DNA of 64,000 nt from Cyanidioschyzon merolae (taxonomy: Eukaryota), in the NCBI GenBank assembly GCA_000091205.1, contig AP006501.2, one strand, 5' to 3'. Made by a program: the position numbers and the translations under genes. The notes below the pieces were generated by a model, which did not search any database, was not told the origin of the DNA, and saw nothing but the letters and a program-made list of their open reading frames with translations. Shown piece after piece: positions 1 through 51,137 of the stretch. Positions within the stretch are counted from its first letter, which is position 1. Every line of letters starts with the position of its first letter.

Positions 1-1272
1 CGACAAAGTTTGGGTGTCCTCCTGCAATGACCTGCACCAGCCATTGCGGTTATTTCTGCGACTGCCTCATTGCCCGCCCTCCTGTCTCTATAGCTCCGTT
101 GCCAGCGGTCGAGGAATCCTGATCGCAGCGCCAAAGCTCCTATTTCGAGGCTTCCGACTGTTGTCGATGCATTTTATAGGCGGACGGAGGTGGCGTTCTG
201 CGCTTCGCTTGCCAATTTCATTTTCTTCGTGTATAGCCTCTGTGTGCGGTTCGCGGCGGTGACTCATGAGGCCGGCATAGTGTCCCCAGCTGTCCGCGAC
301 ACTTGCACCTTCGAGGACTTGCCTGCAGCGCGCGAACGCTTGTTTCATCGCTCGGCACATGCCCGATACTAGTTCAAGAGGTTCCCATAAATGCACGCTG
401 TCGTTTCCGCACACAGTTTCTACTCTACGATCACCGGCCTCGTCGGGGCGATCCCGTCAGCGGCTGCGTCGTTCGATGAACACGCAGACGCACATTGTCT
501 CGCACGATGAAGAGATTTGTGGAACGCGACGTAGTTCACGTTGTAACAGGTGCTCAGATGAAAACCTGGGCAGGAGAACAACTCGAAAACCTGCGACCTG
601 TCTCTGCTCCCTTCGTGCACATTGATGACGCACTGCCCACCGAGCGCAATCGCTGTCACGACTGACGTCAGAGTCCACAGCGCTGTTCCATGCAAGACGG
701 TGGCGACGGACGCCTCCGAGAGCACATCCCGTGAGAGGAATCACGGTGGCGTCGACTGCCTTCTCATCGACGGCGACGAAGAGAGGGCCATTTGCTTTTC
801 GAAGGGAATCGATGATTTGACGTGACAATTGCAGTGAACTTTCGGCATGAACTTTTTGTGAACAGGTCGTCAACGGCCGACGTCGAGTGATTCTCCACGC
901 CAATGCCGCAGCGCGCATCGCTGCACCACAAGGTGGTATGGTACAGTCGATCGAAACCTCTAACCATGCGCGATGTGAATATGCTTCACATGAGAAAATG
1001 CGAAGCGCCGATGTTGATGCGTACAAGTTGGATGATGATATCGGGTAAGGCACGAATCCGTGCTCGAGGGCGTCGCGAATGATGTCAATGACGATGACGT
1101 GACGAATACGAGCGGCAAAGCATCGAAAGAGCTACTCCGAGGACACGATCCAGAATTCTGAAACTCTATATGAGTACGTAGTGCTTTATTGCTTCACTGT
1201 GAACGCCGAGGCTGTAAAGCGAAAGCGTCCAGACGGAATGAGAGAGAAAGGCGGGAACAGGGCAAACATTTC
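1..1272. repeat. Direct repeat copy 1 (>=1.27 kb; left end truncated by the window), about 98-99% identical to 18359-19633
   Basis: ORF translations 14..262, 88..414, 457..1053 and 622..825 are near-identical to 18372..18620, 18446..18772, 18815..19411 and 18980..19183. The nucleotide match runs from pos ~5 to ~1272, after which the sequences diverge (..attttactctgc|acgcg vs ..attttactctgc|ctcat). Confidence 0.9.
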
Positions 1273-1501
1273 AGTATTCCATTTTACTCTGCACGCGTTC
1301 GGCGTTTCTATCACGTCCGTTGTGACTAACGAAGTACAGAAACGACTAGCATTATACCATTTACGTACTGCTCGAGCGCATCGACATTTCTCGCGCGTGC
1401 GCAGCGACGCAGTTGAGCAGGCCAACAAATAACCGCCACGGGTTTAAGCAACGCTTACCGCAAACGCGTCGAGCGAGAAAGACGCACCATCGAACGGAAC
1501 C

Positions 1502-1717
1502 ATGGCAAATGAACTACAAGTACGTCAGCGCAGAGCGCCACAAGATACGCAAGTCGTCGAAGCAAAACCAAGAGCTGCCGCTGTTTCGACTCAGAGGACG
1601 CCTGGTGCGAAACGACACGGCCTGAAGCTCGGGCCGACCGCAGTGCTCGCAATTAGCCTCGGTTTTGTCGGGACAGTCATAACGCTACATATCATCGGAA
1701 AACTTGCCGGAATCTAA
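1502..1717 (+). CDS. SEC61B: Sec61 translocon beta subunit (Sbh1/Sec61-beta), 71 aa, ATG start
   Basis: The C-terminal motif GLKLGPTAVLAISLGFVGTVITLHIIGKL matches the conserved Sec61-beta segment ([29 protein letters not shown]). It is a tail-anchored single-TM protein of typical size. Confidence 0.75.
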   Translation: MANELQVRQRRAPQDTQVVEAKPRAAAVSTQRTPGAKRHGLKLGPTAVLAISLGFVGTVITLHIIGKLAGI

Positions 1718-3924
1718 GACCCAATCACTAGGTCTTGGTGCTTGCACAGCGTATGACCAACCAGAAGCCTGGCAGATCTGATCAACGTTCGGAACCGGAG
1801 CTGTACGCGTTCCTCGCGCATCCGGAAGACTGCTGGTGGGGAGCAACTGTTCGCTCCCCTACATCCATGTCGCTTTCGGCTTGTGTGGTACGACGCTTGA
1901 TCGGTACGCCTGCCGAATCGTAAGGCGCGTCGCGCTCAGGGCAGCACATGTTGCCGATGCGTACGAAACACACGAGTGCTTCCGAGCGATTTTCTGTTTC
2001 CTGAGCAGTGATGCGGATGACGAGCGGCTCCACCCCGGTAAAAGGATTTTGCGAGACTTACCTGTACGAGTGAATCTCTCAGGTTGGTACGTGATTTCGG
2101 CGAGTCCCATCGGCTGCCAGCACCATGTGAACACTTTCCCAGCGAACACCGAGTTCCGACTGAAATCAAATGGTTTCTCTGGGCTAACTCGGGCGTCTAC
2201 TCTAAAGTTTTGGTCTCTTCACACTATCGTCAACATCAACCTTTCCCGGATTTTTATGTGACTGTTTCCATTTTGGTCTATACTTCCTCTGGCTTTATAC
2301 ATGCTGGTCCTATCCTTTACTTCAACTCCGTTGTCTACATTCAAAGCACGTTGGTGGAAGCATTCAAGCCCCATTTTCGTCGGTGTCAGTTGTTCCTCAC
2401 GCATTTCATGCAGAGGCGGAAGTTCCCATACACATGTCGCTTGCCATATTTATCTTCTCTGTAGATAGACTCGATGCATCCTTTGCAACCGTCAAAGCTG
2501 ACTATGGGCAGGTGCGCTCATATGTCCAAAACACAATTTTCTCCAAGGGCCGCTCTGACGCGTAAGAACGCATGCCTCACAGCTCGATACACGTACATGA
2601 CGCGGACAGAGCGCTCCACTCAATACCCTGATCCGTTTACGCATCCGGTGCTGTACGCTACTAACTTGAGATTCCGTTGGTACATTCCCTCAGCGAGTAC
2701 ACAGTCTGCTGCATACGCAATCGAACGCTTTTCTATTCGATTGTGTATTTATGGAACGCGATTATGTTCATAATGAAACAAATACCGGAAGGAAGATTCA
2801 GACTGGAGAACAAGTCGAGAATTCTCAGTCCGTCTGCGCTCCATTTATGCAAAGCTATGGCGTAATCTCCACTTGTAGCGGTCGCTGCATTGGCTCAAGC
2901 CCGAGTCCAAGACTCATTCCCGTAGACAGAGAAGGCTTGGGAGCCTCTGGGAATACTTCTTGCGAGACATATCATGTTGCTGTAGAGTGCCATTTGGTCG
3001 ATAACAGCAAATAGGGGAGGATTTGCGTTTCTCATGAAACCGATCATTTGACATGTCAAAATCTCTAAACTTTCGGAATGGCTTGCGAGCAAGTCGTTTC
3101 AGGACGACGCCAGGTTTCATTCTTCATCTATCCAGCAATGCGAATTACTGCACAAGTGAACGGTCGTGAAAAGGAAAGATCGAGATTTTGAAGAATGTAT
3201 GATTTGAGCGAGGGATACGGAAGAGAAGGGGAACACTAGAGGCCTGTGGATACGAGTTGCAGAAACATGAATCTTCATTTACGAATCCACTTTCGGGGGC
3301 GACGGGAATCATCTTAATTTCGCTAACGCAACGACTTCCAGCGGCAAGGAGTCGAAGAAGCCACTCTGAAAATATAACTCATAATCCTAAACTATGCATC
3401 AATTCTTGATGCCCTTATTGGCGTGGTTCGTACTTCGAAGCTGTGTATCCATATGAATTTAGAAAAAAAAATCGATACGCAGGAAGACAGCGGTTATTCA
3501 GTGCTCCGATTTAAGCCGGCACTAACCGAGAATACGCGTTTCTACCCGGGATATTCACGACTCACGAGTGGATATTTTGGCTCCGGGGAATCATAGAGTC
3601 TGATGAATCGAAGGGCGCTTGGCAAATGTAATCGCATCTCGATATCGCAACTCCTGGTCAAGAGATGCATCCTAAATGGCCCGAAGAATCGCACTTGGGA
3701 GGCGCATGCACGCGAGAACCTCTTCCCTGACGAACGCCTACAGCAATGAGCGATCGTGACAGTTGAGCGTCAATGCCGGAAATTCCAGATACGAACGATT
3801 CCTGTCAGTAAACTCATAACCACGTGCACAGAAGAGAAATGCGAACGGTAAGGATTTTACTAATTTATGCTGCACGCGGGGAAGACAACAAATGACCCTG
3901 AGTGCACTGGGCACCTGGAGATGC

Positions 3925-9218: not shown

Positions 9219-11023
9219 GAACACCCTTATTGCTCGCAGACTGTGCACCGAAATCGTTCCCAATATGTGTCCAGAGGGCGCTCCAGCCTTTATAGTTTGC
9301 CATCCGCACCGAACAAATAGCGTAATCCAGGCGAAAATCCAATGCTCGAGCTCCTGGTCACAGATACTCTGCACCGCAAGTCGTCAGCATTCCAGCACAA
9401 TGCCTATTCTGAGTACGAAACAAGTTCGTCGAAACTTCGCCGACACAGAGCCACTGGGGCGCTCCGGAAGCACGAAGCATCTCCGCTTCTTGATTGAAAC
9501 GTTGAAGTCGCAGTGGGGAAAGCGCCAGCTCGTATCGTTGCTAGTGGAAGTACCCCATGGGCATTCGCTTACCTTCGAATTCATCGCCATCTGACGTTCA
9601 GTCTCTTACAATACAGCACCGCATGCGTCCGTCTTCGCCTCATGCCCTTCGTCTCTGGATGTTAAAGCGTTCACCCGAGCTCATTCTTCGTGCACACCGA
9701 CTTGAATGCATCCGCTGGAATCGTGCAGAATCGATTCCTGAACTCGTTCTACGCTCTAGCCAAAGGAGCGAGAGCGCGGTCTGCGCGCGTTACAGCACGT
9801 CCGGCTCCTTGGGGTACTACGAAACCGCTCGGATGCCCGGTCATTTTATGTTCCGACGAATCCAGCAAGTCAGCGAATGCCCACTTTTGATCATTGTACA
9901 CCCGAAACCGTTGGTGACCTCAGCGCGAGCGCATGCATTCCTGCGAAAAGTCGTCCACATGAGGGATTAGGCGCTCCTATTTGCTCTGAATGAAGCTTTG
10001 GACGCACTCTGTCAGCTCGATACGATGATCAGCGCGTTGAAAAGGGTCCAGGTGCCGTCGTTCCACTTGCGGATGCGCCTGCTTGCGTTCCTGCTCCCGA
10101 CCCGAGATACGAAAAGGCCCGCGCAATCTTCAGCAGCTTCATCTGGTTTCTGCTTAGTTTTTTTGGCTCCATTCTCTTGAGTCAGGGGCACGACGGCGGT
10201 TACGATGCTCATAGACGTGGAATCTTCGCTCACCACGTGGTGCTCCGCTTCGTCTACGCTGAGCAGCGAGGCAGAGTCTCGGTGCTCGACTCTGGCCTGG
10301 GATGGCACAAAGTGCTTACAGATCGATATCATCGAATAGACGCCTGAGGAGGCTAGCATGCTCGCTTACGTGGCAGGAGTCTGTCTTTCTCTGGAAGGCT
10401 CTGTTCAGCGGAGCCTAGTCGCGCAATTGGCAGTTCAGGAAGACGTCTCCTTGCAACCGTCCACTGGAGACGTGACTTGGGTCCGTCCGAGGCCAACAAG
10501 ACGACGACGAGCTTGGACAAGCGGAAGCGACACAGACGCTCTCTCTCGCTCGCCGTGACTTGTCATCCGATATCGCCACCACACTGAGCTCTTTCTGCCA
10601 CCACTAGCGCTTTATTCGCTTCCATCGACGCACCAAGAATCCCTTAGATTCGTCCCAGTTATCCTTGGGTGGCAACACGAGGCTGCAACAACCAGGTGGA
10701 GCGCCCCGCCAAGCGCTCGAGGTCGATCTGCATTTCGCTGTTGAGGTTTGTTTGATCATGGATGACACTTGCGCTTCAGATGCTGCGATCGCCGACGTAG
10801 TGAAGTGATATCTCACGGTATTCTGGGGAGCTTGGGTGCAAATCTCGGATCCTGCGATCAGTTCGTAGTGCATCTTCTGTCCAGAGCACCATCTGTGTGA
10901 TCACAACAGGGTCTGACGGAAAGATTCCTGTGAAATGTGGACAACTGGTAGCGCTGCGTACGCAACTGTTATGAACATCTGCTTGACGAGGAGCGTTAAG
11001 GCGAAGAAAGCCAGACGAGACGT
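9219..11023. repeat. Inverted repeat copy A (~1.8 kb), >99% identical to the reverse complement of 40309-42112
   Basis: ORFs 9557..9970(+), 10012..10359(-) and 10604..10873(-) reappear with identical translations on the opposite strand at 41362..41775(-), 40973..41320(+) and 40459..40728(+). Boundaries were mapped by hand: the left end at 9219 (gaacaccc.. is the reverse complement of ..gggtgttc at 42105-42112) and the right end at ~11023. Confidence 0.9.
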
Positions 11024-12056
11024 CTTTGACAAGAAAGGTATGCGATTCGGAATGGCTTGTAACAAATTACTTTTTGGAGAATGCTATCTTTCCTTGTGAT
11101 TTTGCAGGGAGGCATTCACAGTTGCTCCATACTGATATTTTTCGCTCCGACAGGTTTTCGTCCCTATCTCTGCTTATCCTTTATCGGATCCATCTTTTTG
11201 TTCATTGTCCGGTGGGTTCTTCTCCTTTTCCTCCACAGGCGAGACGGCTGTGATACAGTTGCTGTTCTCTAAAGGTTTTTTCCTCATGATAGAAACACAT
11301 TGGGTACAAGACGGAAGAGAAATTTCTGTCTTCTGAATGTATGTATGCATGCATGATTCTATATGTCCCTTTCTGTCACGTCCATCACCCGAACGCGCGA
11401 GGACGGATTCCCACACTTCCGCTCCAGCTCGGGTCCGAGCGGAGAAGCACCGTGGCGGCTCAAGGATGGTGAAGGTACAGAACAGTTGTCGAATAATCAT
11501 ATCAAGAATGCGAACCAGTCTTCTGTTGATCTATGAGTGAAAAGTTCACAGTTGACAACAGAGAGGCAGCCTTCGACTGGACTGCATCCAGTGGGAATGT
11601 GATGACACGAAGAGCCGCTGGACGCAAGTCTCAGCCGTATATTTCCTCGACCAATGTTGAGAGAACGAAAATGACCTTTTCTTGGAGCAGGACTGAAGAA
11701 TGTGTGATAGACAATGCACGAAGTCTTTCGTTTTAGGATGAGGTGTTGAACGGCCGTGTCTGTAAAGCGCTTATAATGCGGCCACAATGTAATCTGCGTT
11801 AGGGCACTTGTCGTCATTCTCGCTCGTCTTTCATCTATGATCAGCGGTAATACCCTTTCTGAGCACCCATCGTCAGCTCTGCCATTTGTGTCGAATACAG
11901 TCCTATCGATTGAGATGAGAAACCGTCACTTTTGCAGTACGCGTCTGCTTTCCAGGACGAAATCAGTGATGAGTCTCTCAGCGCCCTTTAGTCAACGGTA
12001 GAAACGTGCTGTTCTCTTCGTCTATCCGCGTCTCTCTATCCTTGTTTTCGTCAACA

Positions 12057-14851: not shown

Positions 14852-15679
14852 GTGTGCTATCGATGTGGATGGCATTTTCGGAGAATACGTAATTCGCCGT
14901 GTTCGATGACGAATTACCGGGAGTCGATCCTCGTTTTGCGATCGCTCCACAGTGATGCTGGTGAGCGACACAGTAGCTCCCGGCAATATTATTGATTCGG
15001 GTCGAGCGCCAGTCTTTTCAGAAATGTACAGGGTGCTATCCTGATGTTGCCAAAATCTGCTGCTGCTAGATTTATATACATGTGCTTTGGCACGGAGCGA
15101 TTTTCGCATCGAATTGCGGATTTCAGCCTATGAAGACGGTTCAGCTCGCTTGTGCCAACTCGACACAAATTTGGTCACTGCTGTGGGGCATACTTTTACG
15201 GCATTTGTGTAAAGGGCGAGGTCTCGCCACAATAGCTCTGCTGGGATCACAGTCAATGCTTTGATGCTAAACGGGCACCAGCGTCAGCACGGGCTGGAAA
15301 CGTGTATACCCTGGTACGCGGAACACAAGCGCACTGGGCGGGCTTCTCGCAAGTGCGAGTTTTCGCAGTCGCGGCCCTAGGTATCGAGATTTAGTTCGCC
15401 TTTGGAACCCGCCTCAGTTTGGCTGCGAGCCTTCGCCACCAATCCATGCTAGAAAGTCGGCGCTGCGGAGCCTGACAATACTTGCAGCTGCAACTCTGGC
15501 CGAATCTGCGCCGCACGAGGACGCTAGAAAGTTCGTTGATTGGGCGACGCAGGCAGCAGACTCTTCCAGATGCAACTGTCGTGTGCCCGGAAACCTGCTA
15601 AAATGTTGTGGAAGCTCTGCTCGGGCGTTTTCAAGAAATATTTCCATGCTTGGTGCATCTCCAACCGCGACATCGCATC

Positions 15680-17630
15680 ATGTGAGCTTGTCATGTTCGG
15701 GCTCAGTAAGAGGGAAAGCCTCAACAAGAGAACCTCCTTGATGCCAGCGGGGAGGCAAGCAGCGCTTAGTGCTCGATGAACTTTGCGCCCAGAGCAAGCG
15801 CATAGGGTACACACACAGACGCCCAGTGCAACAAAAACATTCCACGACCGTGTAGGGGTAATGAATACCCATGGGCAGACGCCTCCGGGCGTTTGTCGGC
15901 CCCTCCCCTGCTCCTGGCTTCAGCTTCTCTTTGTGCACTTCGACCATGACACACTGCCCTGCAAATTTGAGTAGTGTAAGCTCCTCGAGTCTCGTCCTCA
16001 GCACCGCATATCTTATGATATTGATGGCGTTGTTGAAGTCTCGGTTCACAAAGTCCATGCGCTTGTCGCTTCTGGTGGAACTTTGCAATGCGGGGAGTCT
16101 TCGAAATCGCGACCTCTATGCCGTTCGCGGCTTTGTCAGCTCGCCGTGCTTTTGTATCCTCAAAACGATCCGTTGGCTTTTCTCTGTCACAACTTTCTGG
16201 AGTGTCCACCTCAGCCCAATCTTTATATTTTGAAAATGAATGCACTTTTTTATGCAATTTGATGAGTACCTTTCCGAAGGGAGAAGAACTTGCGGAAGAA
16301 AGACCACATATGCCCTGGTGCCACCGTGTGCTGAACGCTTCAGTGGTTCGCCCAGTGGAGTGATCATAGCGTTTCACGACAGAAAACATTCCTTCCATGG
16401 TGTTGAGCCACGAGGTGTGCGGAGGAATCAAAAGCAGCGCTACCCCGATAGAATCGGCAAATGGTCGAATGCAAGGCGATGGTGAAATGCCGCGTTGTCC
16501 GGTAGAAAGACGTCGCCGGACGTCAGAGAACAGTCTTCAACGGTTCGACAATGTGAATGCAGCTGTGCGAGCCTTCTCTAAGAGCGAAGCTGAGGCGACC
16601 AAATGAATCCGCTGCATCTAGAGGAGATGATGGTATCCTCGTTCTCTACGAGTTCCATCGTTTTTAGAACGGGTTCCCTTCACCCCGAATATTTATGCAC
16701 ACTCCGCCGGCATCAACTGAAGGAATTCCGGGCGACTGAAGAAATAAAGCCACGTCACTGTGTATTATACCCATCAAGACGTTCCAGGAACGCTTTAGTT
16801 GCGATTTCGGTGGAAGATGGCTGCGCACGGACGAGGACTCGTTTTTTCGACCATATCTTAGTGTTTCCAGGACCACTCGAACAATATGTTGGGCAACAGA
16901 GACACCTGTAGTTCCTACTATCGCTGCTTTTGCTTTCCTTATGATGATAAACAGGTCGTTTTCTACCATTGATCGCAGGCAGTCTTCGAGAATATCGGTT
17001 TTTAACGCGGATCGCGAAACCTCCTTTGTTTCCGTATTCCTCAATCATCTGCCTACTGTGGTAGACTGACCTGAATGAGGAATGCAGGCCTCCTTGCAAT
17101 GTTCAGTAAACAACGTATATCCGTCAGGCAACTCATCAACGATCTATACAGTCCAATGCATGGTGATGTGGATCGCCTCTTATCCACTTCAAAAAAGCAT
17201 TCAACGGCACGCAGCCGAGGTGAAACAGAAATGAGTTCAAGGTACGCTTCGTACGCGCGCCCTGCCTTTACAGCGTCGAGGATCGAACGCTATATTTTAT
17301 TACTTTTTTGTCGTTTTCTGTGTGTGTTCGAGGCAACGCTTGCTGGAGTTGAACTGAACGCTCAGATATGGCCCTTGGTCGTTTTCCAAGCTCGTACACA
17401 ACGAGCGCCGGCACCTCTAGAGGTAGCGGCGGGGCTGGCTTACTACCGTTCTCTCAAGAGCCGTTGGTTGAACCGCGCGTCCTACAGCGGGCGATTCAGA
17501 ACCGAATAACACGAAGGCGAATTCGTTTGGTTGGAGATTCACTCGTGCTTGTGTGCTCTGTTGCTGTAGCCGCTTCAATACTTGGGAGGACTTACCAACT
17601 GTACTCAGAAAGTAGTAATAGGTCGGCAAA
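15680..17630 (-). mobile_element. Decayed Tc1/mariner-like (DDE_3) transposon remnant, frame-disrupted, with an adjacent TnpB/Fanzor-like C-terminal remnant
   Basis: Minus-strand translation ~16536-16370 reads ..GISPSPCIRPFADSIGVALLLIPPHTSWLNTMEGMFSVVKRY, matching the Tc1/mariner C-terminal hallmark (FQQDNAPCH..[~15 aa]..LPPYSPDLNPIEnlWsilKR). ORF 16664..17044(-) contains WNVLMGIIHSDVALFLQ, which resembles W..VLFSDESKFnLF (the first catalytic D) about 90 aa upstream. ORF 17417..17629(-) has a weak HTH-like LSTVGKSSQVLKRL. The frames are broken, so this is a pseudogene. Confidence 0.5.
15980..16140 (-). pseudogene. TnpB/Fanzor-like RuvC-III remnant (motif NRDFNNAINII, compare consensus [DN]xDxNAAxNI)
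   Basis: ORF 15678..16088(-) begins ..SDKRMDFVNRDFNNAINIIRYAVL. The overlapping upstream frame reads ..ANGIEVAISKTPRIAKFHQ, loosely resembling the ..G.kv..V.p.yTSqtCs.CGh Zn-ribbon region with its cysteines lost. A homologous segment occurs at 36425-36788. Confidence 0.45.
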
Positions 17631-18358: not shown

Positions 18359-19633
18359 CACTAAAGTTTGGGTGTCCTCCTGCAATGACCTGCACCAGCC
18401 ATTGCGGTTATTTCTGCGACTGCCTCATTGCCCTCCCTCCTGTCTCTATAGCTCCGTTGCCAGCGGTCGAGGAATCCTGATCGCAGCGCCAAAGCTCCTA
18501 TTTCGAGGCTTCCGACTGTTGTCGATGCATTTTATAGGCGGACGGAGGTGGCGTTCTGCGCTTCGCTTGCCAATTTCATTTTCTTCGTGTATAGCCTCTG
18601 TGCGCCGTTCGTGGCGGTGACTCATGAGGCCGGCATCGTGTCCACAGCTGTCCGCGACACTTGCACCTTCGAGGACTTGCCTGCAGCGCGCGAACGCTTG
18701 TTTCATCGCTCGGCACATGCCCGATACTAGTTCAAGAGGTTCCCATAAATGCACGCTGTCGTTTCCGCACACAGTTTCTACTCTACGATCACCGGCCTCG
18801 TCGGGGCGATCCCGTCAGCGGCTGCGTCGTTCGATGCACACGCAGACGCACATTGTCTCGCACGATGAAGAGATTTGTGGAACGCGACGTAGTTCACGTT
18901 GTAACAGGTGCTCAGATGAAAACCTGGGCAGGAGAACAACTCGAAAACCTGCGACCTGTCTCTGCTCCCTTCGTGCACATTGATGACGCACTGCCCACCG
19001 AGCGCAATCGCTGTCACGACTGACGTCAGAGTCCACAGCGCTGTTCCATGCAAGACGGTGGCGACGGACGCCTCCGAGAGCACATCCCGTGAGAGGAATC
19101 ACGGTGGCGTCGACTGCCTTCTCATCGACGGCGACGAAGAGAGGGCCATTTGCTTTTCGAAGCGAATCGATGATTTGACGTGACAATTGCAGTGAACTTT
19201 CGGCATGAACTTTTTGTGAACAGGTCGTCAACGGCGGACGTCGAGTGATTCTCCACGCCAATGCCGCAGCGCGCATCGCTGCACCACAAGGTGGTATGGT
19301 ACAGTCGATCGAAACCTCTAACCATGCGCGATGTGAATATGCTTTACATGAGAAAATGCGAAGCGCCGATGTTGATGCGTACAAGTTGGATGATGATATC
19401 GGGTAAGGCACGAATCCGTGCTCGAGGGCGTCGCGAATGATGTCAATGACGATGACGTGACGAATACGAGCGGCAAAGCATCGAAAGAGCTACTCCGAGG
19501 ACACGATCCAGAATTCTGAAACTCTATATGAGTATGTAGTGCTTTATTGCTTCACTGTGAACGCCGAGGCTGTAAAGCGAAAGCGTCCGGACGGAATGAG
19601 AGAGAAAGGCGGGAACAGGGCAAACATTTCAGT
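18359..19633. repeat. Direct repeat copy 2 (pairs with 1-1272)
   Basis: The same ORF translations recur, as listed for copy 1. Differences cluster around copy-relative position ~240-290. Confidence 0.9.
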
Positions 19634-19903
19634 ATTCCATTTTACTCTGCCTCATTTTTGGGCCAGCGGGTTCACGCCCTGTCTCTAGACAGCGCCAAAA
19701 CCGACGTAATGAACGGATGCAATCGCCATGGAAGGAGCGTTGCCGAGCCTCCTAGTTTCACGATACTGCTCCCGGGCAGCGAGGACGCGCGAAAGGCGCA
19801 CTCGAGACGCAGCACGCACGTCAACGGTGCTCAGGTAGACGGGGGTGCAACCACCACGAACATAGCTTCATTAAACCCCACAAGTCCCCATTCCTTATCA
19901 CAA

Positions 19904-27135: not shown

Positions 27136-27949
27136 ATGGTGGTCGACGCAGCGTAGATATCAGCGCGCTCCACAAATGCATATATCCGCCTCAGTTTCCA
27201 TGCATCTAAATCTAAAAACGGCATGTTTATCAGCAGCCTCGAAGCGATCGCCGGCTGCATGGCATGGGACGTGGATCGTCCTGAACCTCAGCGCTTTCCG
27301 TCATAGAGTATTTGCGCAGCAACGGGAGCGTACGCACGGCAGCTGTCCATGGAGCTCAGAACCGGGAGCATCCTTGCAGAAGCATATATGCGATGCTCGT
27401 ACCTTGATCTTGACGCAGAGCAGTTCACAGCATACGGGATACAACTTATCGCCATGCACAAGATTTTTCACGTTTTACACTGAACCTTGGTGGATGCGAA
27501 GCCACTTTTTCGGGCAGGTGAGACATCAGCGATGATGCGAAAGGCAACAAAGTCGTGTGCCGGCCACAGATCTGTTGTTCTGAACCTGAAACCATAGAAC
27601 GGATGGCATGGATTTGGATATGGCAAAAATTGACAGGCAGCGATTTTCTTTAGTCGTCCAAAGAGCAGGCATAGCGTGAGGATGTCGACCGGGCACACGC
27701 AGCAACGAATGGTTTCCTCAGTCCACGTCCGCGCATCTATTGTAATAAACCGTGTTGTGATCAGATCATATGTGTTGTCTGCGATTTAGGCCAGCTGCCG
27801 CGAAGAACATTGCATGTTATCAACTGGCGGTAAAGCGACTTGTAGAATATCACGACCTCCGTTTGCCAAGATGTTGATAGATGGAGGGCATCCCCGTGCC
27901 TATGGCCATGCGCACACTCTCAACACGACCAACCGAACTCCTTCAGTGA

Positions 27950-28232
27950 TTGGTGCTACGAGCCGTAAAGGATTTACGCAGTGAACATCATTTCCCGACG
28001 TGCTTGAGTGCAATGTCGAGTTACACGCGGTGCATACTGCTGCTATTGCTGCTACGAGCCGTAATCGATTTACGCAGTGAACATCATTTTCCGACGTGCT
28101 TGAGTGCAATGTCGAGTTACATGCGGTGCATACTGCTGCTATTGCTGCTACGAGCCGTAATGGATTTGCGCAGTGAACATCATTTTCCGACGTGCTTCAG
28201 TGCAATGTCGAGTTACACGCTGTGACAACAGC
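27950..28232. repeat. 96-bp tandem repeat, ~2.9 copies, followed by a short (CAG/GAG)n tract
   Basis: The unit gctacgagccgtaa[a/t][g/c]gatttacgcagtgaacatcatttcccgacgtgcttgagtgcaatgtcgagttaca[c/t]gcggtgcatactgctgctattgct recurs at 27955, 28051 and 28147. It lies in the 3' intergenic region between convergent genes. Confidence 0.9.
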
Positions 28233-33723: not shown

Positions 33724-36424
33724 CAGCGAGAAGCTGAGTGCCCCTAGCGAGCATCCCTTAAGCCACCCAGGGTTTTCACGAAAGCCCCACAGTACGTATG
33801 CGGAGCAAACGTGCAACCCCGACACTGGCAACGCAATACGCAGTGCACTTTGAGCCGGTTTCTACTCGGGGCAGAACATGGTGATAAACTAGTTTTTATG
33901 AGCACAAGCCCTAGACATCAGGGATTAAATGAGATACTGCAAGTTGAAAAGGTTTGCTTTAGAGACTCATCGACCGAAGCGTCACTGTCTCCGTGTTCCC
34001 AAAGCAAGCTGCTGCATGGGGATCCTCTGCTTTTGCTGCGTTGCAGAAACTCCAAATTCGTATCCCCCAGATGCGGCGTTCGACTGTATAACAAACGCTT
34101 GCAACACCGGAGGCTCGCGGACGTGCTGCACCACAACGTGCAACCTGTCTCTGTGTCGTCCAGAGCGCGTTGTTGTAACCACGTGGTGCGATACCGAGAT
34201 CCTCTTACAGAGAGCGGCTTGCCCAGAGTGACCTATCTCATTCAGAGTATTGAAAAACAGCGGTCCGAAGTCTCTGCTGCACATCTGTGGTAGACTCTTC
34301 ACGAACGAGCAATTTATAAATTCCTCTGGGTAGAACGCCAGACTCGGCTCGTGCAGGTACCTTATCCGGTGTCGAACATTCGAGCATGAGCTTGGGAGTC
34401 CCGGAGCATTTCGCTCTCGGCTTGGGGGAGCATGAAAGTTAGGCTACTAGCCGATATCAGAGATGAGCGCAGCTGGCGAGGTTGGAATATTGTCGCTCGC
34501 AGCAGGCATACTGAAGCGTGCAATCGAGTTCGGCTCATTCTGGTCAGTTTTTAATTTGTGGATGACGATTAAGTGTCGATGCTGAACGCTTCCGTGTGAT
34601 ACAGCGCTCAGGTCTATGACCGCAAGCACCAAATCATCGGCGCTCCAGCGCTAAAGCTAGTCTTGTTTCGAAACCTGCTCTCAGTGATGGAGATCGCATG
34701 CCTACGGGGACTTTTCGGTATCGGCAAGTCAAGGGCGCCACCTCTAATCGTGCCGTGTAAAATATGGAATACCAGACTGCTCGCTTCCCTCCTGCCTTTC
34801 GAGTTTTCCGAAATTTTTTTCGATATGCAGCCCCTATATTCAAAGTGCAACAGCAAGGGCTTCGGAATGCATACATAGGATTTGGATTCTCGGAGGTTCT
34901 TTTTCAGAGCGGCCGCTTTCACGGTTCACCTCTGGAATTGGTTACGTCATTTGAATCAGGATGATGCGCATTGCTCTGGAACAAGGGATCGTACAGCATC
35001 CGATGCCAGCAACCAATTCAAAAGTACATGCCTCAAAGCTTCTCCTTTGCTTATTCGTAAGATGATAAAATTGCGCATTATTCAAGTATTCGATGTTTCT
35101 TTTCCAAGGCAAATCGTGGGCGTCGCCATTCGCACGGCAGTACTGATAAGGAAAACAACGCGACATCGTCCATAGACGACTTTTTTAACCAGCTCATGCC
35201 AAACGTTCACTGAACTTGCCACGTCATACAATCGATTCTTTTCAAATGCCGAATCCTGCTCTCTTTGAGACCATCCACGAAATTGCATTCGACATCTGCA
35301 TGACTGCACGTATGGGGTAATCTCTGAAAGACTCCCGTCTCGTCCGGTTGCATTGAAACGAGTCGCGGACTTGGGATTCACCCATTACTGTAATCGCTTC
35401 GGATAGGGTATGCGTCACCGCTTTCCGCGAATAGAGCTTGAATGGATTCGAAGTTCTCAACTTGCTCTCTAACATGGATTCCCCTACCAGTACTTTTTTC
35501 AACATGAACAAAACAGCGTTCTATAAATTCGTTCTGAAATGGAACAGCTCGCACCTGCATGTACTGTAGAGAGCATGCCCACCGACGGCATCGGCCAGAA
35601 AACGCTCTTGAGTCCAGAGTATGGTACCGGGCACGGGAAAGTACCAGTACATAGGGGGAAGCCCTCTGTACCCGTCATGTGCGTGTTCCGAAGCATGAGG
35701 CAAGCGTCTGCGCATCATGCAGTGGTCCTCGGAAGAAAAAGAGGTATGGTAGACATATGCGCACGCCTAGTCATGGTCAGGCATCACTGGTGCGAAGCGC
35801 GCGCCGACATTGTACACAAAGAAGATGAATATAGGAAAAGAAGCAGAGATCGTATCTTGCGCCTGCGCATGGACTGCTTACCTACAGGTGAAAAGAGCGT
35901 CATCAATACTAAGACGCCGTGATCAATATCGTTTGACCGTTGACTACATAGCTCGAGGGGAGTAAGCGACCGCCGTATGTAAAGCCTGAGATATGCACCT
36001 GGCGAAGGACGCAGTGCCAATGAACACCAGCAAAGCTGATGTTCATGACACTGGGAAGAGACTTGTACTTTACTACGCGCGCCCTAGTTGAATGATCCGT
36101 TCGTTTTAATCCACACAAGGATGTCTACTGAAATGTCGTTTACAACTCATGCAGGCTGCTCTATACAGAGAGCCCCAAACGACATGAAGCCAAGACCCCA
36201 TTCTCGAACGCTTATCGCTGCAATGCTCATCGGAACTACCACCTGCGGGAAGCAATTCGATTCTTGCAATTGTGACGAATGGCCTCGCAATGAAATGCAG
36301 AAACATTCGCGTCTGTACTTGCGCTTGCAAGGACGAAGTGTCTCGTGTCCTATGCAGCAGCTGTTGCATATGCACGTGAACAGCAAAAGGAACAACGTTC
36401 TTCAACCATGTTCGGTACACGTAT

Positions 36425-36788
36425 CTACTCACGCGCAGACACCTTGCAGTCGTGTTCGGGCCGGCCTACCGCAAACGGATTCAACTTCTCCTTGTACTCT
36501 TTGAGCAGGAGAGGCTGCCCCATAAAGTTCATTCGCGTCAGCTGCGGGGGTGTCCTCTTCAACACCACACATCTGCTGATTTTGGTGTCGGCGCTCAAGT
36601 CACGGTTCACGAACTCCATGCGTTTCTTGCCTCTGGTGGAATTCAGCAATGCGAGGATTCCTCGAACTCGCGGCCTCAATGCCACTATATTTTCGTTGCC
36701 GCACCGTCTGGTGAACATCATTTCTCGCCCACTTCCTCATTTCGTCTTCTTCTTCGTCACTTGCTCGTCTTCGCGCAATGGTCGGCAA
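36425..36788 (-). pseudogene. Second TnpB/Fanzor-like remnant, homologous to 15980-16140 (a short fragment with no adjacent Tc1-like part)
   Basis: The minus-strand frames read ..YSGIEAASSRNPRIAEFHQRQETHG and ..RPRVRGILALLNSTRGKKRMEFVNRDLSADTKISRCVVL. These parallel locus 1 (..ANGIEVAISKTPRIAKFHQKRQAHG and ..RSRFRRLPALQSSTRSDKRMDFVNRDFNNAINIIRYAVL) with the same frame relationship. Synonymous differences (ttt/ttc, cga/cgt) preserve FVNRD. Confidence 0.4.
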
Positions 36789-37526
36789 TATAAGGATTTC
36801 TCGTCTTTCTTGTTCCGGCAGTATGCAATGACGGGCCTCCGGGATCCCCAGCTTTCATGTTCATACCTTTTCTCTTAGATTATTTATTTTTTCAAATGAT
36901 AGCGCTTGGGATACATTTTCAATACCTGCGAAAACGCAAATGATTTTACGCTCCTGGGCCTGGAGTATCATTGAGATAGGAGCCTATAAGAAGCAGTCGG
37001 GGTTGAAGCACTGATGCGAGACACACGCCTGTGGCTTTTTTAATGAACAGGCACGCAGAGGCTATGCAGAAATATCATTGCTCACATGAGATCCCCTGCG
37101 AATCCTATGCTTCCTAACCAAGTTCCGAAATAGGAAGATCACAAGAAACAGAAAAACGATCAGGAGCTGTGCAGGACGCAGAGATTTGCTGGGTACTCGC
37201 GTTCTCGAGACGCTCTACATAGATATGGATTTCCAGCAATGCCAAGTCACAATCGGAAGCTAAATCAAGAGCCATGAACTCTCAATCGATATCATGGGTA
37301 GGATCTCGCCATCCAAAGCGACCGCTCTAGCGAGCAATCACCATCTGAGGTCGTACCAAGCGCCAAAAACATCTCGCTAGCTACCGTAAGGAAGCGCTCG
37401 CCATCACCAAGAGGTCGCCCCGGCGAGCCGCAACCCTCCAGTGCAGCACCGGGGGTATCCACGACGGCTTTTGTCATCGACGCTGCGTTCGGTGTCGAAT
37501 CCTGCCTCAAACAATGCTCCACCACA

Positions 37527-38813: not shown

Positions 38814-40308
38814 GAGCGGCCAGCCTCGGAACTCCAGTGTGCGTCTTCGTACGAAAGACCCGCTTCAGGGCGCATCGACCAGAGCTTTGACAGGACGCTC
38901 GATGTTGTTCACGAGCGAGCAGCTCTGCGGAGCCCGAAACTACTGCAGCGTACCCGAGAACCAGCTGTAAACCTCTGCGAGTCCACAACACCGAAGACAA
39001 GTCAACGTTTCGCCAGACAGGACACTCTAATAGGGCCGGATACACCCGTTAAACAGGACGAGAGAAATACGCCTGGGAACAACGCGCTTTGTATCGTGAA
39101 CGCGAGAAACGAAGGCAAGACAAGCGCAAACGTCAACACTGACCAAGGCGTTCGTACCACCTGGGGAGGTTCGATGCCAGGGGCTTGAATGGCGGCAATT
39201 ATTTTGAAGTCTTTCAGGAGAAATTAGATGCAACATGACACCGTAAGATACTGATAGAAGCATTGCCCTTGGTTTGATCAACGAGCAAACTTCACCGTGG
39301 ATGCAGGCGAACCGCACCGCCAGGCAGAAGTTCCTCGCAGACTGATGTACTCAGTTCTAAACAGAGCGCAGAGTTCTGGGACACCTGTACGAGAACGGTC
39401 TTTTTGTTTCCTTTTGTTTCTCTCGGGGGTATTGAACAGAAGCAAAGTATCCAGTAGAGCGGAGGAAGATCACAAAAAGTCTTTGTAATGCAAGTGCGAG
39501 CTCGCGAGCAAAGGACCTTACTTGTAGAAGTAAGCTATTCTCAGGTAAGCAGCTGGATGAACCACCCTTCTGGAAGTCCTTATTTTGAACGTCGTGCATC
39601 GGAGAGCAGAACCTAGAAAACGCAGTCTAAACGATCGTCTTCTTGTTAAACTGATACAGTCCATGAATGCTCAAATAAATACAATCAAATAAGTCGCAGA
39701 ATGGTAAGGTTCCGAACCGTCGAGACAAGCACCGCTGAAGAGATACGCATGGACAAGGGAAAAAGCAACCCTCTATGAGCGAGCATCGCCCGTTGAACAA
39801 CGAACTCTGGATTTCGCGCGGAAGCACGAAAGCTCCGGACTAGTGAAACTATTGCTCGTTTTACTCGATGAGACTTCATTCGGGAAATATGGAGGATGCG
39901 AATACGCATTTTCGAGGAAGAAAAACTGCTATTCATCAAATAAGAGGCAAGCGAGCTTTCCAACGAGATCAGTCCGAGCTGTGATTCAGTCGTTTGGTCG
40001 AAGGCGTTTTGAAAAATGCACGGGATCGATAAGCGTCACATGCTTCGTCGGAACACTCGTCGTGGCTTCTCCTCTCCACATTCTTCTGTCCTGCGCTCAT
40101 ACAGCGTCGATTTCAATCACTAAAAAACGCTTCAGGAGTATGGTACTGAATTTTGCATTGCACTGCTCTTTGTCTCAGTGTACGGTCACCATCCCAGTCT
40201 ATTAGCAGGAGTGTGCTCTGTTGTCAAACGTTTTTATGTCGGACACACAGATCAGCAGAAGAGGCATTCGCATCCTTGATACCCAAAGTTGCAGAAAGTA
40301 AATAGGAA

Positions 40309-42112
40309 ACGTCTCGTCTGGCTTTCTTCGCCTTAACGCTCCTCGTCAAGCAGATGTTCATAACAGTTGCGTACGCAGCGCTACCAGTTGTCCACATTTC
40401 ACAGGAATCTTTCCGTCAGACCCTGTTGTGATCACACAGATGGTGCTCTGGACAGAAGATGCACTACGAACTGATCGCAGGATCCGAGATTTGCACCCAA
40501 GCTCCCCAGAATACCGTGAGATATCACTTCACTACGTCGGCGATCGCAGCATCTGAAGCGCAAGTGTCATCCATGATCAAACAAACCTCAACAGCGAAAT
40601 GCAGATCGACCTCGAGCGCTTGGCGGGGCGCTCCACCTGGTTGTTGCAGCCTCGTGTTGCCACCCAAGGATAACTGGGACGAATCTAAGGGATTCTTGGT
40701 GCGTCGATGGAAGCGAATAAAGCGCTAGTGGTGGCAGAAAGAGCTCAGTGTGGTGGCGATATCGGATGACAAGTCACGGCGAGCGAGAGAGAGCGTCTGT
40801 GTCGCTTCCGCTTGTCCAAGCTCGTCGTCGTCTTGTTGGCCTCGGACGGACCCAAGTCACGTCTCCAGTGGACGGTTGCAAGGAGACGTCTTCCTGAACT
40901 GCCAATTGCGCGACTAGGCTCCGCTGAACAGAGCCTTCCAGAGAAAGACAGACTCCTGCCACGTAAGCGAGCATGCTAGCCTCCTCAGGCGTCTATTCGA
41001 TGATATCGATCTGTAAGCACTTTGTGCCATCCCAGGCCAGAGTCGAGCACCGAGACTCTGCCTCGCTGCTCAGCGTAGACGAAGCGGAGCACCACGTGGT
41101 GAGCGAAGATTCCACGTCTATGAGCATCGTAACCGCCGTCGTGCCCCTGACTCAAGAGAATGGAGCCAAAAAAACTAAGCAGAAACCAGATGAAGCTGCT
41201 GAAGATTGCGCGGGCCTTTTCGTATCTCGGGTCGGGAGCAGGAACGCAAGCAGGCGCATCCGCAAGTGGAACGACGGCACCTGGACCCTTTTCAACGCGC
41301 TGATCATCGTATCGAGCTGACAGAGTGCGTCCAAAGCTTCATTCAGAGCAAATAGGAGCGCCTAATCCCTCATGTGGACGACTTTTCGCAGGAATGCATG
41401 CGCTCGCGCTGAGGTCACCAACGGTTTCGGGTGTACAATGATCAAAAGTGGGCATTCGCTGACTTGCTGGATTCGTCGGAACATAAAATGACCGGGCATC
41501 CGAGCGGTTTCGTAGTACCCCAAGGAGCCGGACGTGCTGTAACGCGCGCAGACCGCGCTCTCGCTCCTTTGGCTAGAGCGTAGAACGAGTTCAGGAATCG
41601 ATTCTGCACGATTCCAGCGGATGCATTCAAGTCGGTGTGCACGAAGAATGAGCTCGGGTGAACGCTTTAACATCCAGAGACGAAGGGCATGAGGCGAAGA
41701 CGGACGCATGCGGTGCTGTATTGTAAGAGACTGAACGTCAGATGGCGATGAATTCGAAGGTAAGCGAATGCCCATGGGGTACTTCCACTAGCAACGATAC
41801 GAGCTGGCGCTTTCCCCACTGCGACTTCAACGTTTCAATCAAGAAGCGGAGATGCTTCGTGCTTCCGGAGCGCCCCAGTGGCTCTGTGTCGGCGAAGTTT
41901 CGACGAACTTGTTTCGTACTCAGAATAGGCATTGTGCTGGAATGCTGACGACTTGCGGTGCAGAGTATCTGTGACCAGGAGCTCGAGCATTGGATTTTCG
42001 CCTGGATTACGCTATTTGTTCGGTGCGGACGGCAAACTATAAAGGCTGGAGCGCCCTCTGGACACATATTGGGAACGATTTCGGTGCACAGTCTGCGAGC
42101 AATAAGGGTGTT
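40309..42112. repeat. Inverted repeat copy B (pairs with 9219-11023, opposite orientation)
   Basis: See copy A. The only differences I could see in the ORF track are two amino-acid changes (H/R, W/R) across ~1.8 kb. Confidence 0.9.
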
Positions 42113-42654
42113 CAGTCAACGAATGGCAAGTCACGTATTTCGTGGGCCTTCATTTCGGGAGATTGTATGCACCTCGAAAGCGGCCAGATACTGTATCGCG
42201 CCACTTCCATTGCGTTCAGGAATCTGAACAAGCTTTCCATGCGACCTGGTATTCGCCGTCGGTTGCGACGATTCGCTTACAGCGTGCCCTGTGAAGAGAA
42301 CCAGGCAGGAAACACTGATCCATAATATTCACATTTTCATATGGTTTATGATCGGAACGAGAGCCGACCAGCACTACACAGGCTCTTCAATGAATCCGAG
42401 GAGATGCGATCATCTACGTCACGTCAACGAATGGCCTTAGTCCTGCCCATCAGCCGCATCGAGGTTCCCGTTTTGAATGCGTACCATAATCGAAACGACT
42501 CAATACGCATCGCACCGATCATCCATATACATACACAAAGAATGCTTCCTCCAGCGGCGGACACGGCGAACGCCAAGACTCGTGACGCAATGCAAAAATG
42601 ATTCATATGCGGATTACATGCGTATCCTTCCACCAATTCACATCCTGACTCCAA

Positions 42655-49590: not shown

Positions 49591-51137
49591 GCTGCTCGCC
49601 TGCACCTTGACTATCGCTTTTTTCCGACATTTTCTGATGTACAGCCTCGACAATTGAAGTATAGCAATAAGGGCTTCGGGATGATGCATATGAAGTTCCA
49701 GGATTCTCGTTTGCCTTTGCGGAGTCGCAGCTGTGACGCTGCCTCTGGAATTCACGAAACCATGGACGTCAAGATCATTCGCGACACCCTAGAAAACGGG
49801 TTCGTTCTGTACCCGATATCAGGATCCAGTTCAAAAGCGCAAGCCTCATCGCTGCTCTCTTACTTTGATGTAGCATGCTCAAATCATGGATTCTTCAATG
49901 TTTGGGATCCTTCTGTTGCAAGGCAACTTGGGGGCGCACCAATTCGCGCCCCAGCGTGGACAAGGCGAAAAACTCGACATCTTCTCTCTTGAGGACGTCT
50001 TCACCAGCTCATACCGATTGTGCACTGTACTTGCCTCGTCAAATACTCGACACCGTTCGAAAGCCAAACCGCCATTTCTATGTGGACATTGATGAAACCG
50101 GACTCGACAGCTGCGTGATGCCTCGCTCGGAATGTGGTACCCGAGTCTCCCGTCTTCTCTCTAGGGATGGAGAACCGTCCAGGACTCGGAGTTGGGTTGT
50201 CGGAGCGATCGCTTCGACCGAGGCGGGCTCCACCGCGTGGTACAACGGCAGCGCTCAGGGGCAGGAACTTCTCGGTATCTACTCCAGCAGGATGTTTCCT
50301 TCCTGTATGTGTTCCATCATGGACAATACCGCATACCAAATTCCTTGTATCCAATGGAAAATCGTGCCCTTGTGCGTAGAGCGGACAAAGCATTCGCCAG
50401 AGGGATCACCCATAAGCAGCACGTGATCCTAGGATACGGTGCCAGGCGTGGAGAAGCGGGTACGGTATCGAGGCGCGTCCGCGCTACGCTTCATGGACGT
50501 GTACAGAGCGGCGAGGCAAGGCGTTCACGCGCCACATGGCGGCTCCTGGAGATAGGATGTATGGCGGACATACGAGAGCACCTGACCGCAGTCCAGTGTC
50601 ACCGCTGAGAAGCGCACACTGAGGCTGTTACCATGGACGCTGAAAATAGCGTGCGAGGCATAGCTCGCAACTACCGCATGTGCATCAATTGCGTCGATCA
50701 TAGCAAGAAGCTGCGAAATGTGCATTTGAACGCTGCCACCAACATCCCCGCACTGCTCACGAATATGCTGGAGCGCAAGGCGCGATCGGAGGACTTCAAG
50801 CCGTACATGAATGACAGGGAAAGCAAGCAGAGGCAGGAAAACCCGCAACAGCTGGTTTTGATCACATCTTCAGCATGGGAAACATCGAGATTGAACGCCC
50901 GAGTTTGCCAACGGGACGATTTCAGATGGAGTCTAACAGAGGCGTCAAACAATGTCGCGGCCATGCCCTTGTTCAAAAAAATGTCGTTCCACAAGCGTCT
51001 GATGGACAAGCACGGCGAAGCGACGCTTTCATAGAAAGCAAATGTAATGCTTCTTCCTGGACAGAGACGCGTCATCAAGGAGGCTCTCGTTCCATATCTG
51101 GATGCGAAAACGTCTTCAAGGATCTCGTTGTCTACTC

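Follow-up and report, generated by a model that had tools for sequence, protein, structure and literature searches.

A decayed 1.45-kb element joining an IS630-like transposase gene to the 3' end of a Fanzor1 gene in a red algal genome

Introduction

In the live systems described by published TnpB and Fanzor work, a DDE transposase cuts and pastes the element; Fanzor1 is directed to the DNA it cuts by an RNA that the 3' end of its own gene encodes, and is believed to aid the persistence of the element. Here we describe a decayed element, lying at 17244-15808 on the minus strand of a 64,000-nucleotide stretch of Cyanidioschyzon merolae DNA (contig AP006501.2; the whole stretch is called the window below), in which an IS630-like transposase gene is joined to the last codons of a Fanzor1 gene. 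Fanzors have been reported in rhodophytes, and the Fanzor1 of C. merolae is CMe-1 (Bao & Jurka 2013, Mobile DNA 4:12, PMC3627910, Additional file 3). The corresponding element, CMe-1A, is 3169 bp long, occurs in ~150 copies that are ~80% identical to their consensus, shows neither inverted repeats nor target-site duplications and was left unclassified (PMC3627910). Composites of Mariner/Tc1 and Fanzor1 are known as PUl-1 and PUl-2 from Pythium ultimum and as PGv-1 (PMC3627910), and associations of Fanzor1c with Mariner/Tc1 have been described (Jiang et al. 2023, PMC10530073). Moreover, Fanzor elements are often chimeric with one end region in common, and the Fanzor-only PUl-4 shares its ends with transposase-bearing elements (PMC3627910).

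The window element resembles the CMe-1 system in several respects. Its tail corresponds to CMe-1 residues 616-726, and a ~3-kb family that we rebuilt encodes a protein near-identical to CMe-1; the published 5' 630 bp of CMe-1A (TE-N2_CMe) are 89% identical to the rebuilt long consensus, and the age of the copies agrees (~80% identity to consensus). Unlike CMe-1, however, the window element has the last ~17% of the Fanzor gene, the rest being replaced by an IS630-like transposase gene, and the ends that CMe-1A is seen here to have in common with a DDE-transposase element were not reported in PMC3627910. With the Mariner/Tc1-Fanzor1 composites the family shares a DDE transposase and a Fanzor1 in one element and in the same orientation (an intact example, L091, is described below), and its Fanzor-only relatives have the ends of the transposase-bearing ones, as does PUl-4; yet most of the Fanzor is missing, and the family lives in a cyanidialean-type red alga instead of an oomycete or a virus. 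The likeness to bacterial IS630 (NF033545) and DDE_3 lies in the profile matches, the DD34E spacing and a YSPWFNPIE motif in the family consensus, whereas the setting is eukaryotic and all family copies seen are pseudogenes. Finally, the model of a full-length relative, P0029, superposes on the solved Fanzor1 structures (SpuFz 8GKH, 9CEU and related entries; PpFz 9CF0 and 9CF1; GtFz 9CER), with the invariant Asp, Glu and Arg-Asp in GxDPG, DEFRTS and NRDxNAAxNI, but the sequence identity is 13-15%, the zinc finger of the CMe-1 lineage looks degenerate and the window element has only the last part of the fold.

Since Fanzor1 in Mariner/Tc1-type transposons is already documented and CMe-1 was published in 2013, the locus is mainly an example of a fossil already known in kind. 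As for CMe-1-type ends and an IS630-like transposase, their connection appears not to have been described in those Fanzor papers of the searched literature that name Cyanidioschyzon (the 2013 paper and an unrelated one), and is a modest addition.

Results and discussion

The window copy belongs to a family of chimeric elements

The Joint Genome Institute (JGI) metagenome contigs were scanned with an alignment of tail peptides, which confirmed at least 103 relatives, and the best 80 loci were retrieved; when the window peptides were used in word-indexed homologue searches, the sole return was this locus in other strains, as a 126-aa (amino acid) "hypothetical protein". Among the best 80 loci, ~20 places cover the whole 1.3-1.45 kb and the remainder only the last 220-420 bp. 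The stretch from 17244 to 15808 (minus strand) is a single decayed copy of this 1.45-kb repeat family: 17240-15808 aligns with family consensus positions 59-1480 over 1439 bp (79.9% identity, 10 gap openings), and tblastx of the region, covered by 20-80 loci, puts the edges of homology at ~17260 and ~15800. The whole element falls within 15680-17630, where a sequence-only reading had seen a decayed Tc1/mariner-like element carrying a TnpB/Fanzor-like remnant.

Including that of the window, 16 full-length copies were aligned, each 76-83% identical to the consensus and none with an intact open reading frame (ORF; 0/16). The alignment shows two conserved parts, a block of ~1 kb and a tail of ~230 bp, separated by a variable linker of ~100 bp. 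The consensus runs from a ~75-bp 5' end through a ~1-kb DD34E transposase gene and the last ~120 Fanzor1 codons to a hairpin-rich 3' end of ~60-100 bp, which overlaps and follows the Fanzor stop codon. Its Fanzor part, ~17% of the gene, contains RuvC-III without RuvC-I or RuvC-II.

Such an arrangement could have been a local accident, a Tc1-like element having landed beside or inside an older Fanzor fragment, and the two Fanzor tails present in the window, which have just 207 bp in common, did look like independent fragments before other loci were seen. This is very improbable, as fifteen other distinct loci carry the same transposase and tail with the same spacing and outer ends (the unit recurs at 15 or more loci elsewhere, on metagenome contigs from the same organism or relatives of it) and the consensus runs unbroken across the junction in 9 copies. 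Because their flanks differ, these loci are not assembly duplicates.

In the window copy the reading frame is broken, the consensus homology jumping among all three frames with several in-frame stops. Four metagenome contigs with 99.3-99.5% identity to the window have the same insertion; they thus represent the same locus in other strains, and the insertion is fixed. We conclude that 17244-15808 is very probably a dead and fixed copy from a DNA-transposon family that is old and non-functional. The copy is incapable of transposition or guided cutting because of its frameshifts and stops, the loss of a catalytic Asp, the lack of RuvC-I and RuvC-II and the degraded 3' structure.

The tail is a remnant of the Fanzor1 C-terminus

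By tblastn, the Fanzor1 C-terminal remnant lies at 15876-16205 (minus strand) and corresponds, with one in-frame stop, to residues 616-726 of the 734-aa CMe-1 (49% identity over 112 columns, E 7e-18); the 69-aa core of the tail matches CMe-1 by BLASTP with 54% identity (E 7e-17). These two matches bear out the earlier claim of a TnpB/Fanzor-type RuvC-III, made from the minus-strand peptide KRMDFVNRDFNNAINII, whose RuvC-III core lies at 16052-16017. On translation the RuvC-III motif remnant (16017-16052, minus strand) is FVNRDFNNAINI, for a family consensus of FVNRDFNAAINI; it reads NRDFNNAINI in the window and NRDFNAAINI in a 99.4%-identical strain. More than 100 tail copies carry KRMEFVNRDFNAAINIRRCAV, and the family tail consensus reads GNKRMEFVNRDFNAAINIRRCAVLKTRPEELTRSNFVGQPLRLEVYKEKLKPIAGG. 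The tail is from a sister subfamily (…LKTRPEELTRSNFVGQPLRLEVYKEKLKPIAGG, with a distinct terminal hairpin) whose DNA shows ~78% identity to the 3' end of the CMe-1A type. The window tail peptide had no match in Pfam or PDB.

Homology to Fanzor in the window copy begins at about CMe-1 residue 616, right after TS, and the full Fanzor motif, D-X(125,275)-[TS][TS]-X-X-[C4 zinc finger]-X(5,50)-RD (PMC3627910), is absent, the copy being without the GxDPG Asp and the DEFRTS block. An upstream peptide, ERYSSNCIKKC, was considered as a TnpB TS and zinc-finger block and ruled out, as the consensus Fanzor homology begins further downstream, at (D/H)ELGCTLQ.

In many tail-bearing copies the homology extends a further 2-3 kb upstream. 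A consensus built from 22 of these long copies contains a 784-aa ORF with GADPGNTN, VVAYGAGRW...VDEFRTS and FVNRDFNAAINI, which on side-by-side reading is near-identical to CMe-1, the C-terminal ~90 residues differing at one position. A search with this consensus returned 29 proteins, and an exhaustive search with a profile of eight of those returned 3321 relatives. Eight residues (D422, G424, G560, P574, E593, R661, D662 and N664) are invariant in 86 aligned family proteins, all of them within the GxDPG, AYGxAKF, DEFRTS and NRDxNAAxNI motifs. The full-length relatives have the Asp, the TS and the RD of the Fanzor motif; their four-cysteine finger looks degenerate (CMe-1: TSYTHHELGC...EKC), and Pfam Cas12f1-like_TNB matches them weakly (E 0.1-0.2).

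Sequence searches of PDB with the tail, a three-sequence tail profile, the 784-aa consensus and the eight-protein profile retrieved no Fanzor, TnpB or Cas12. The Fanzor1 fold (WED, REC and split RuvC) was assessed on the 702-aa full-length relative P0029, not on the window fragment. An AlphaFold model of P0029, built on the 86-protein alignment (pLDDT 88.9), was compared with PDB by Foldseek, and the top seven matches were all Fanzor1 (E 2.5e-17 to 3.9e-14, TM 0.52-0.72), followed by Cas12f, Cas12i and Cas12k; a first, shallow and low-confidence model ranked them in the same way. Homology to CMe-1, together with a full-length relative predicted to fold like the Fanzor1 structures, thus supports the identification of the tail as a true remnant of the Fanzor1 C-terminus.

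In the Fanzor1 proteins of this lineage, tandem acidic repeats of ~25 aa (…KHEEKKEADPATQEVQDNDLVVDA…) stand directly before the RuvC-I GADPG, with one copy in the published CMe-1, three in the long-family consensus ORF (L005-L084) and four in P0003. Because their number varies, the part of the element upstream of the tail ranges in length from 2.0 to 2.4 kb.

The transposase half matches IS630 and DDE_3 profiles

The family consensus transposase scores above the cutoffs of both Pfam DDE_3 (PF13358; E 1.1e-20, 74.4 bits, cutoff 28.6, profile positions 4-136 of 146) and the NCBIfam IS630 family transposase (NF033545; E 2.3e-33, 115.9 bits, cutoff 100, positions 28-275 of 299). The Tc1/mariner label of the sequence-only reading thus named the right superfamily, within which the transposase scores best against the IS630 model. 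Counted on the consensus, the spacing is DD34E (SVDET, LLDNV and NPIE, with 34 residues from the second Asp to the Glu), and the consensus restores the transposase motifs FVFSVDETCFGRNGRSVYGYSRSREP, GDVLLLDNVAFHH and LLFIPPYSPWFNPIEGVFSIVKR. Its N-terminus gave weak matches to the helix-turn-helix (HTH) families HTH_33 (E 0.0011) and HTH_Tnp_Tc3_2 (E 0.0066), both under the curated cutoffs; consensus alignment places the HTH-like N-terminal region of the window remnant, DILEDCLRSMVENDLF...GVSVAQHIVRVVLETLRYGRKN, at 16841-16996 (minus strand). A phmmer search with the consensus transposase found no match (E <= 1) among solved structures, transposases included.

All three peptides quoted in the sequence-only reading were found on the minus strand at the positions claimed, namely SWNVLMGIIHSDVALFL at ~16790-16739, IPPHTSWLNTMEGMFSVVKRY at ~16431-16370 and the RuvC-III peptide given above. 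The chain of Tc1/mariner DDE_3 hallmarks that the first two were taken to form holds for the PPHTSWLNTME block, which is 69% identical to the consensus PPYSPWFNPIEGVFSIVKR over 52 aa and falls on DDE_3 profile positions 106-132, and not for the HSD piece. The latter, "IIHSDVALFL" (16768-16739), had been taken as the first-Asp motif (HSD..LFL); it is in the right place and overlaps the first-Asp remnant, yet its frame is shifted by one base from the ancestral one. Read in the homologous frame, 16754-16716 gives RGFISSVARNSF, against RRFVFSVDETCF in the consensus. There (16716-16754, minus strand), tblastn of the consensus transposase and comparison of the DNA by eye gave the first catalytic-Asp motif remnant as RGFISSVARNSFS (consensus RRFVFSVDETCFG), in which the Asp has become Ala. 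The second catalytic-Asp motif, GDVFLPDNAAFHH (consensus GDVLLLDNVAFHH), was located by tblastn and translation at 16479-16517 (minus strand), and the C-terminal catalytic block with its Glu motif, SPCIRPFADSIGVALLLIPPHTSWLNTMEGMFSVVKRYDHSTGRTTEAFSTR, again 34 residues from the second Asp, by consensus alignment and DDE_3 at 16324-16479 (minus strand). The window copy therefore lacks an intact Asp-Asp-Glu triad, the second Asp and the Glu remaining, whereas the family consensus has all three.

Taken alone, the window sequence stays under every curated profile threshold. Its match to DDE_3 has an E of 0.05-0.11 for raw frames, individual ORF fragments or stops masked, and of 4.9e-5 when three frames are stitched by hand (23.7 bits, under the 28.6 cutoff), and its tail finds nothing in Pfam or PDB; a chance resemblance of motifs in non-coding eukaryotic DNA could look like this. 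Such an explanation is scarcely credible given that two of the three peptides (the PPHTSWLNTME and RuvC-III blocks) are far beyond chance, that the family consensus reaches 74 bits in Pfam and 116 bits in NCBIfam, and that the tail matches CMe-1 with E 7e-18 and has more than 100 related copies. Of the profile searches proposed with the sequence-only reading, that with DDE_3 stayed below the cutoff for the window copy and exceeded it for the family consensus. Altogether, the profile and motif matches support the reading of the transposase half as a decayed DDE gene of the IS630/Tc1/mariner superfamily.

Shared ends link three element types

The same two ends flank three types of element: a Fanzor-only type of ~2.4-2.8 kb, preceded in CMe-1A by the 635-bp TE-N2_CMe sequence; a ~0.6-kb internally deleted type, in which the first ~50 Fanzor codons are joined to the last ~90; and the 1.45-kb chimera, with the IS630-like transposase gene in place of Fanzor residues 1 to ~611. 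Chimera and CMe-1A-type consensus have 352 bp in common at the 3' end, at 78% identity, and TATAGTCTTTCAACTCAATTTTGTTTCACCCC at the 5' end (29/32 positions); chimera and short elements share GCTTTTTCGC.GT.TATAGCAG, the 5' similarity then reaching ~75 bp. In the window copy the 5' terminal sequence common to the Fanzor-only and internally deleted elements, TA-CCTTGAACTCATTTCTGTTTCAC ... GAATGCTTTTTTGAAG, was located by 5'-end alignment at 17187-17244 (minus strand). With both ends in common, the three types would constitute one DNA-transposon family with different cargo.

The window also contains a ~0.6-kb internally deleted Fanzor element at 36380-36988 (minus strand), delimited by tblastn and by alignment with 13 similar short elements, being one of at least 13 such elements among the retrieved loci. 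Between the shared 5' and 3' ends it has the first ~50 Fanzor codons (MNMKAGDPGGP...) joined to the last ~90; its RuvC-III has decayed to NRDLSADTKIS, and CMe-1 residues 646-718 match it by tblastn with 56% identity. In a self-comparison of the window, 36477-36683 is 73% identical to 15916-16122 over 207 bp.

An apparently intact 3.45-kb composite was found in a lower-GC organism at locus L091 (JGI 3300008963, 3.5-kb metagenome contig Ga0102930_1005964, positions 3-3456). Positions 3-30 and 3429-3456 form inverted repeats of 28 nt (79% complementary), and TA stands at both ends. Its 301-aa transposase ORF, missed by the gene caller of the source, is 43% identical to the family consensus (E 3e-65), and it also encodes the 702-aa Fanzor1 P0029, with ~200 bp from the Fanzor stop codon to the 3' repeat. 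L091 is suited to experimental reconstruction and, together with the ends that CMe-1A shares with transposase elements, suggests which enzyme moved these elements.

In the window itself, tblastn revealed a second, very divergent IS630-like transposase remnant (LLVLLDETSFGKYGGCEYAFSRKK; ALLFVSVYGHHPSLLAGVCSVVKR) at 39735-40231 (plus strand), which precedes, by 78 bp and in the same orientation, a P0029-like Fanzor pseudogene at 40309-42113. If the sequence-only reading had been wrong, Tc1-like transposases and Fanzor sequences should not be neighbours elsewhere; they are at no fewer than 15 other loci, at 39735-42113 of the window and on L091.

The chimera arose before the window insertion

We propose a history in which an ancestral composite would have had the order ends-transposase-Fanzor1-ends, a type of which an intact element is still present on L091. 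Deletion or recombination would have given rise to derivatives keeping the ends, one of which, having dropped ~83% of the Fanzor gene, would, as long as there was a working transposase, have spread to 16 or more loci and would then have decayed to ~80% identity. When it inserted, the window element already was chimeric, with just ~17% of the Fanzor gene, and it is not a full composite eroded in place: because the family consensus already holds only the last ~120 codons, no full Fanzor gene was ever present at 17244-15808. Hence, of the composite fossil that had been suggested from the window sequence, the transposase and Fanzor remnants are both real, and the decay in place of a full composite is not.

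Several points weigh against this history. Apart from a 5' YAGT and a 3' CACTG, the window family shows no convincing terminal inverted repeats, its copies being ~20% decayed, and no matching TA duplications were seen in the 16 copies, the 5' flank being mostly TA and the 3' flank after CACTGA not. Movement by the DDE transposase is therefore an inference. Between transposase and conserved tail, the ~100-bp linker shows little conservation and comes in two variants, so that the junction is common only at ~100-bp resolution. The order of events could be either deletion from a full composite or recombination of a transposase element with a Fanzor element. The sequence-only reading had named intact copies, terminal inverted repeats and TA duplications as the signs to look for. 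The L091 relative is apparently intact and has inverted repeats and TA at both ends; in the window family no copy among 16 is intact and only tetranucleotide ends are inverted.

The 3' end as a candidate guide-RNA gene

The decayed 3' structured region of the window copy (15823-15909, minus strand), delimited by 3'-end alignment, contains the last Fanzor codons, the GGGTATTCATTACCCC palindrome (15870-15855) and the remnant of a terminal hairpin, GTGGAATGTTTTTGTTGCACTGG (15845-15823). In the consensus, this region overlaps the Fanzor stop codon, forms several hairpins and folds better than shuffled sequences, with z -4.68 for the CMe-1A type (0/200 shuffles as good) and z -1.97 for the chimera subfamily; the window copy folds no better than shuffles (z -0.42), and the second window copy likewise. 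By eye, the terminal hairpin is kept with a sequence that differs by subfamily (GTGAAACG/CGTTTCAC vs CGTTCGA/TCGAACG vs CGTTTTTC/GAAAGGCG). Both a guide-RNA gene and a transposon-end hairpin are compatible with these folding data. As it is kept in every derivative form, the structured 3' end is a testable candidate for the guide-RNA gene of the CMe-1 Fanzor lineage.

A further possibility would be that the chimera was a functional guide-only hitch-hiker, which kept the guide-RNA-encoding 3' end and relied on CMe-1 copies to supply Fanzor in trans. The same ~350-bp 3' region is kept in the full-length, internally deleted and chimera types, it overlaps the stop codon and folds better than shuffles in the consensus, and its terminal hairpin is retained across subfamilies despite the differing sequence. 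However, any non-autonomous DNA-transposon derivative keeps both ends, so a guide-RNA role is unneeded to explain their retention. To this are added three observations: RNAalifold on 28 3' ends (-2.4 kcal/mol) gave neither a robust consensus structure nor compensatory pairs; an Rfam scan of window 15500-17500 found no match; and the family is extinct, the two window tails differing at 16, 19 and 20 sites by codon position, an even spread that gives no sign of selection and indicates that both are decaying neutrally. The guide-RNA reading of the 3' region rests on the folding energy of the consensus and on analogy, and a guide-only function for the chimera is in our view unlikely.

Doubtful, too, is the joint proposition that the unclassified CMe-1A belongs to an IS630/Tc1-type system and that the chimera kept its guide-RNA 3' end for the Fanzor of other copies. 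If true, the chimera would be the eukaryotic counterpart of the bacterial guide-only, non-autonomous TnpB-associated elements. Neither the hint at the mobilizing enzyme nor the guide-RNA candidate alters current understanding.

Other repeats and genes of the window

The window is eukaryotic nuclear DNA of ~54% GC without tRNA genes. Its long, seemingly intron-free ORFs encode an ESF1-like protein, an APE1-like nuclease with a GRF zinc finger, a Myb protein, kinases, two Na/H exchangers and a ZIP transporter. Published C. merolae repeat families are found here at ~78-89% identity to their consensus.

The P0029-like pseudogene at 40309-42113 (plus strand) forms, with 9219-11023 (minus strand), an inverted pair of 1805 bp, 99.9% identical, with sharp ends and unrelated flanks. 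Both are heavily decayed copies of a P0029-like Fanzor1 pseudogene, 27-43% identical to CMe-1, in which RuvC-III now reads FPHCDFNVSIKKRRC. The near-identity of two dead copies points to recent duplication, conversion or trans-mobilisation; metagenome contigs break at the edges of the pair. A possible, weaker transposase remnant (RFLISIDRTVFDTNGR, E 0.054) lies at 11839-11934, near the copy at 9219-11023.

At 59795-60763 (minus strand) stands a TE-N2_CMe-like copy, 73% identical to the long consensus over 936 bp, and the published TE-N2_CMe sequence matches 60763-60147 with 77.5% identity; the copy directly precedes a 247-aa ORF at 59049-59792. A direct repeat pair of 1288 bp (5-1292 and 18363-19650, 99% identical, 18 kb apart) has its nearer copy 1.1 kb from the chimeric element. 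Other metagenome loci match this repeat weakly (64-77%), and it does not resemble any of the Fanzor, transposase and TE-N2 consensus sequences; it is probably another dispersed repeat family, and its first copy may reach beyond the start of the window.

Two very long ORFs on the minus strand (42655-48849, 2064 aa, and 51138-58208, 2356 aa) are tandem paralogues. Both begin with a Na/H-exchanger domain in the N-terminal part, and their DNA shows ~64% identity over ~1 kb; a related repeat with 66% identity links 34777-35303 and 49592-50118. Lastly, a 96-bp tandem repeat (2.9 copies, 94% identity) lies at 27949-28224, in or beside the 5' end of the Myb-protein ORF region.

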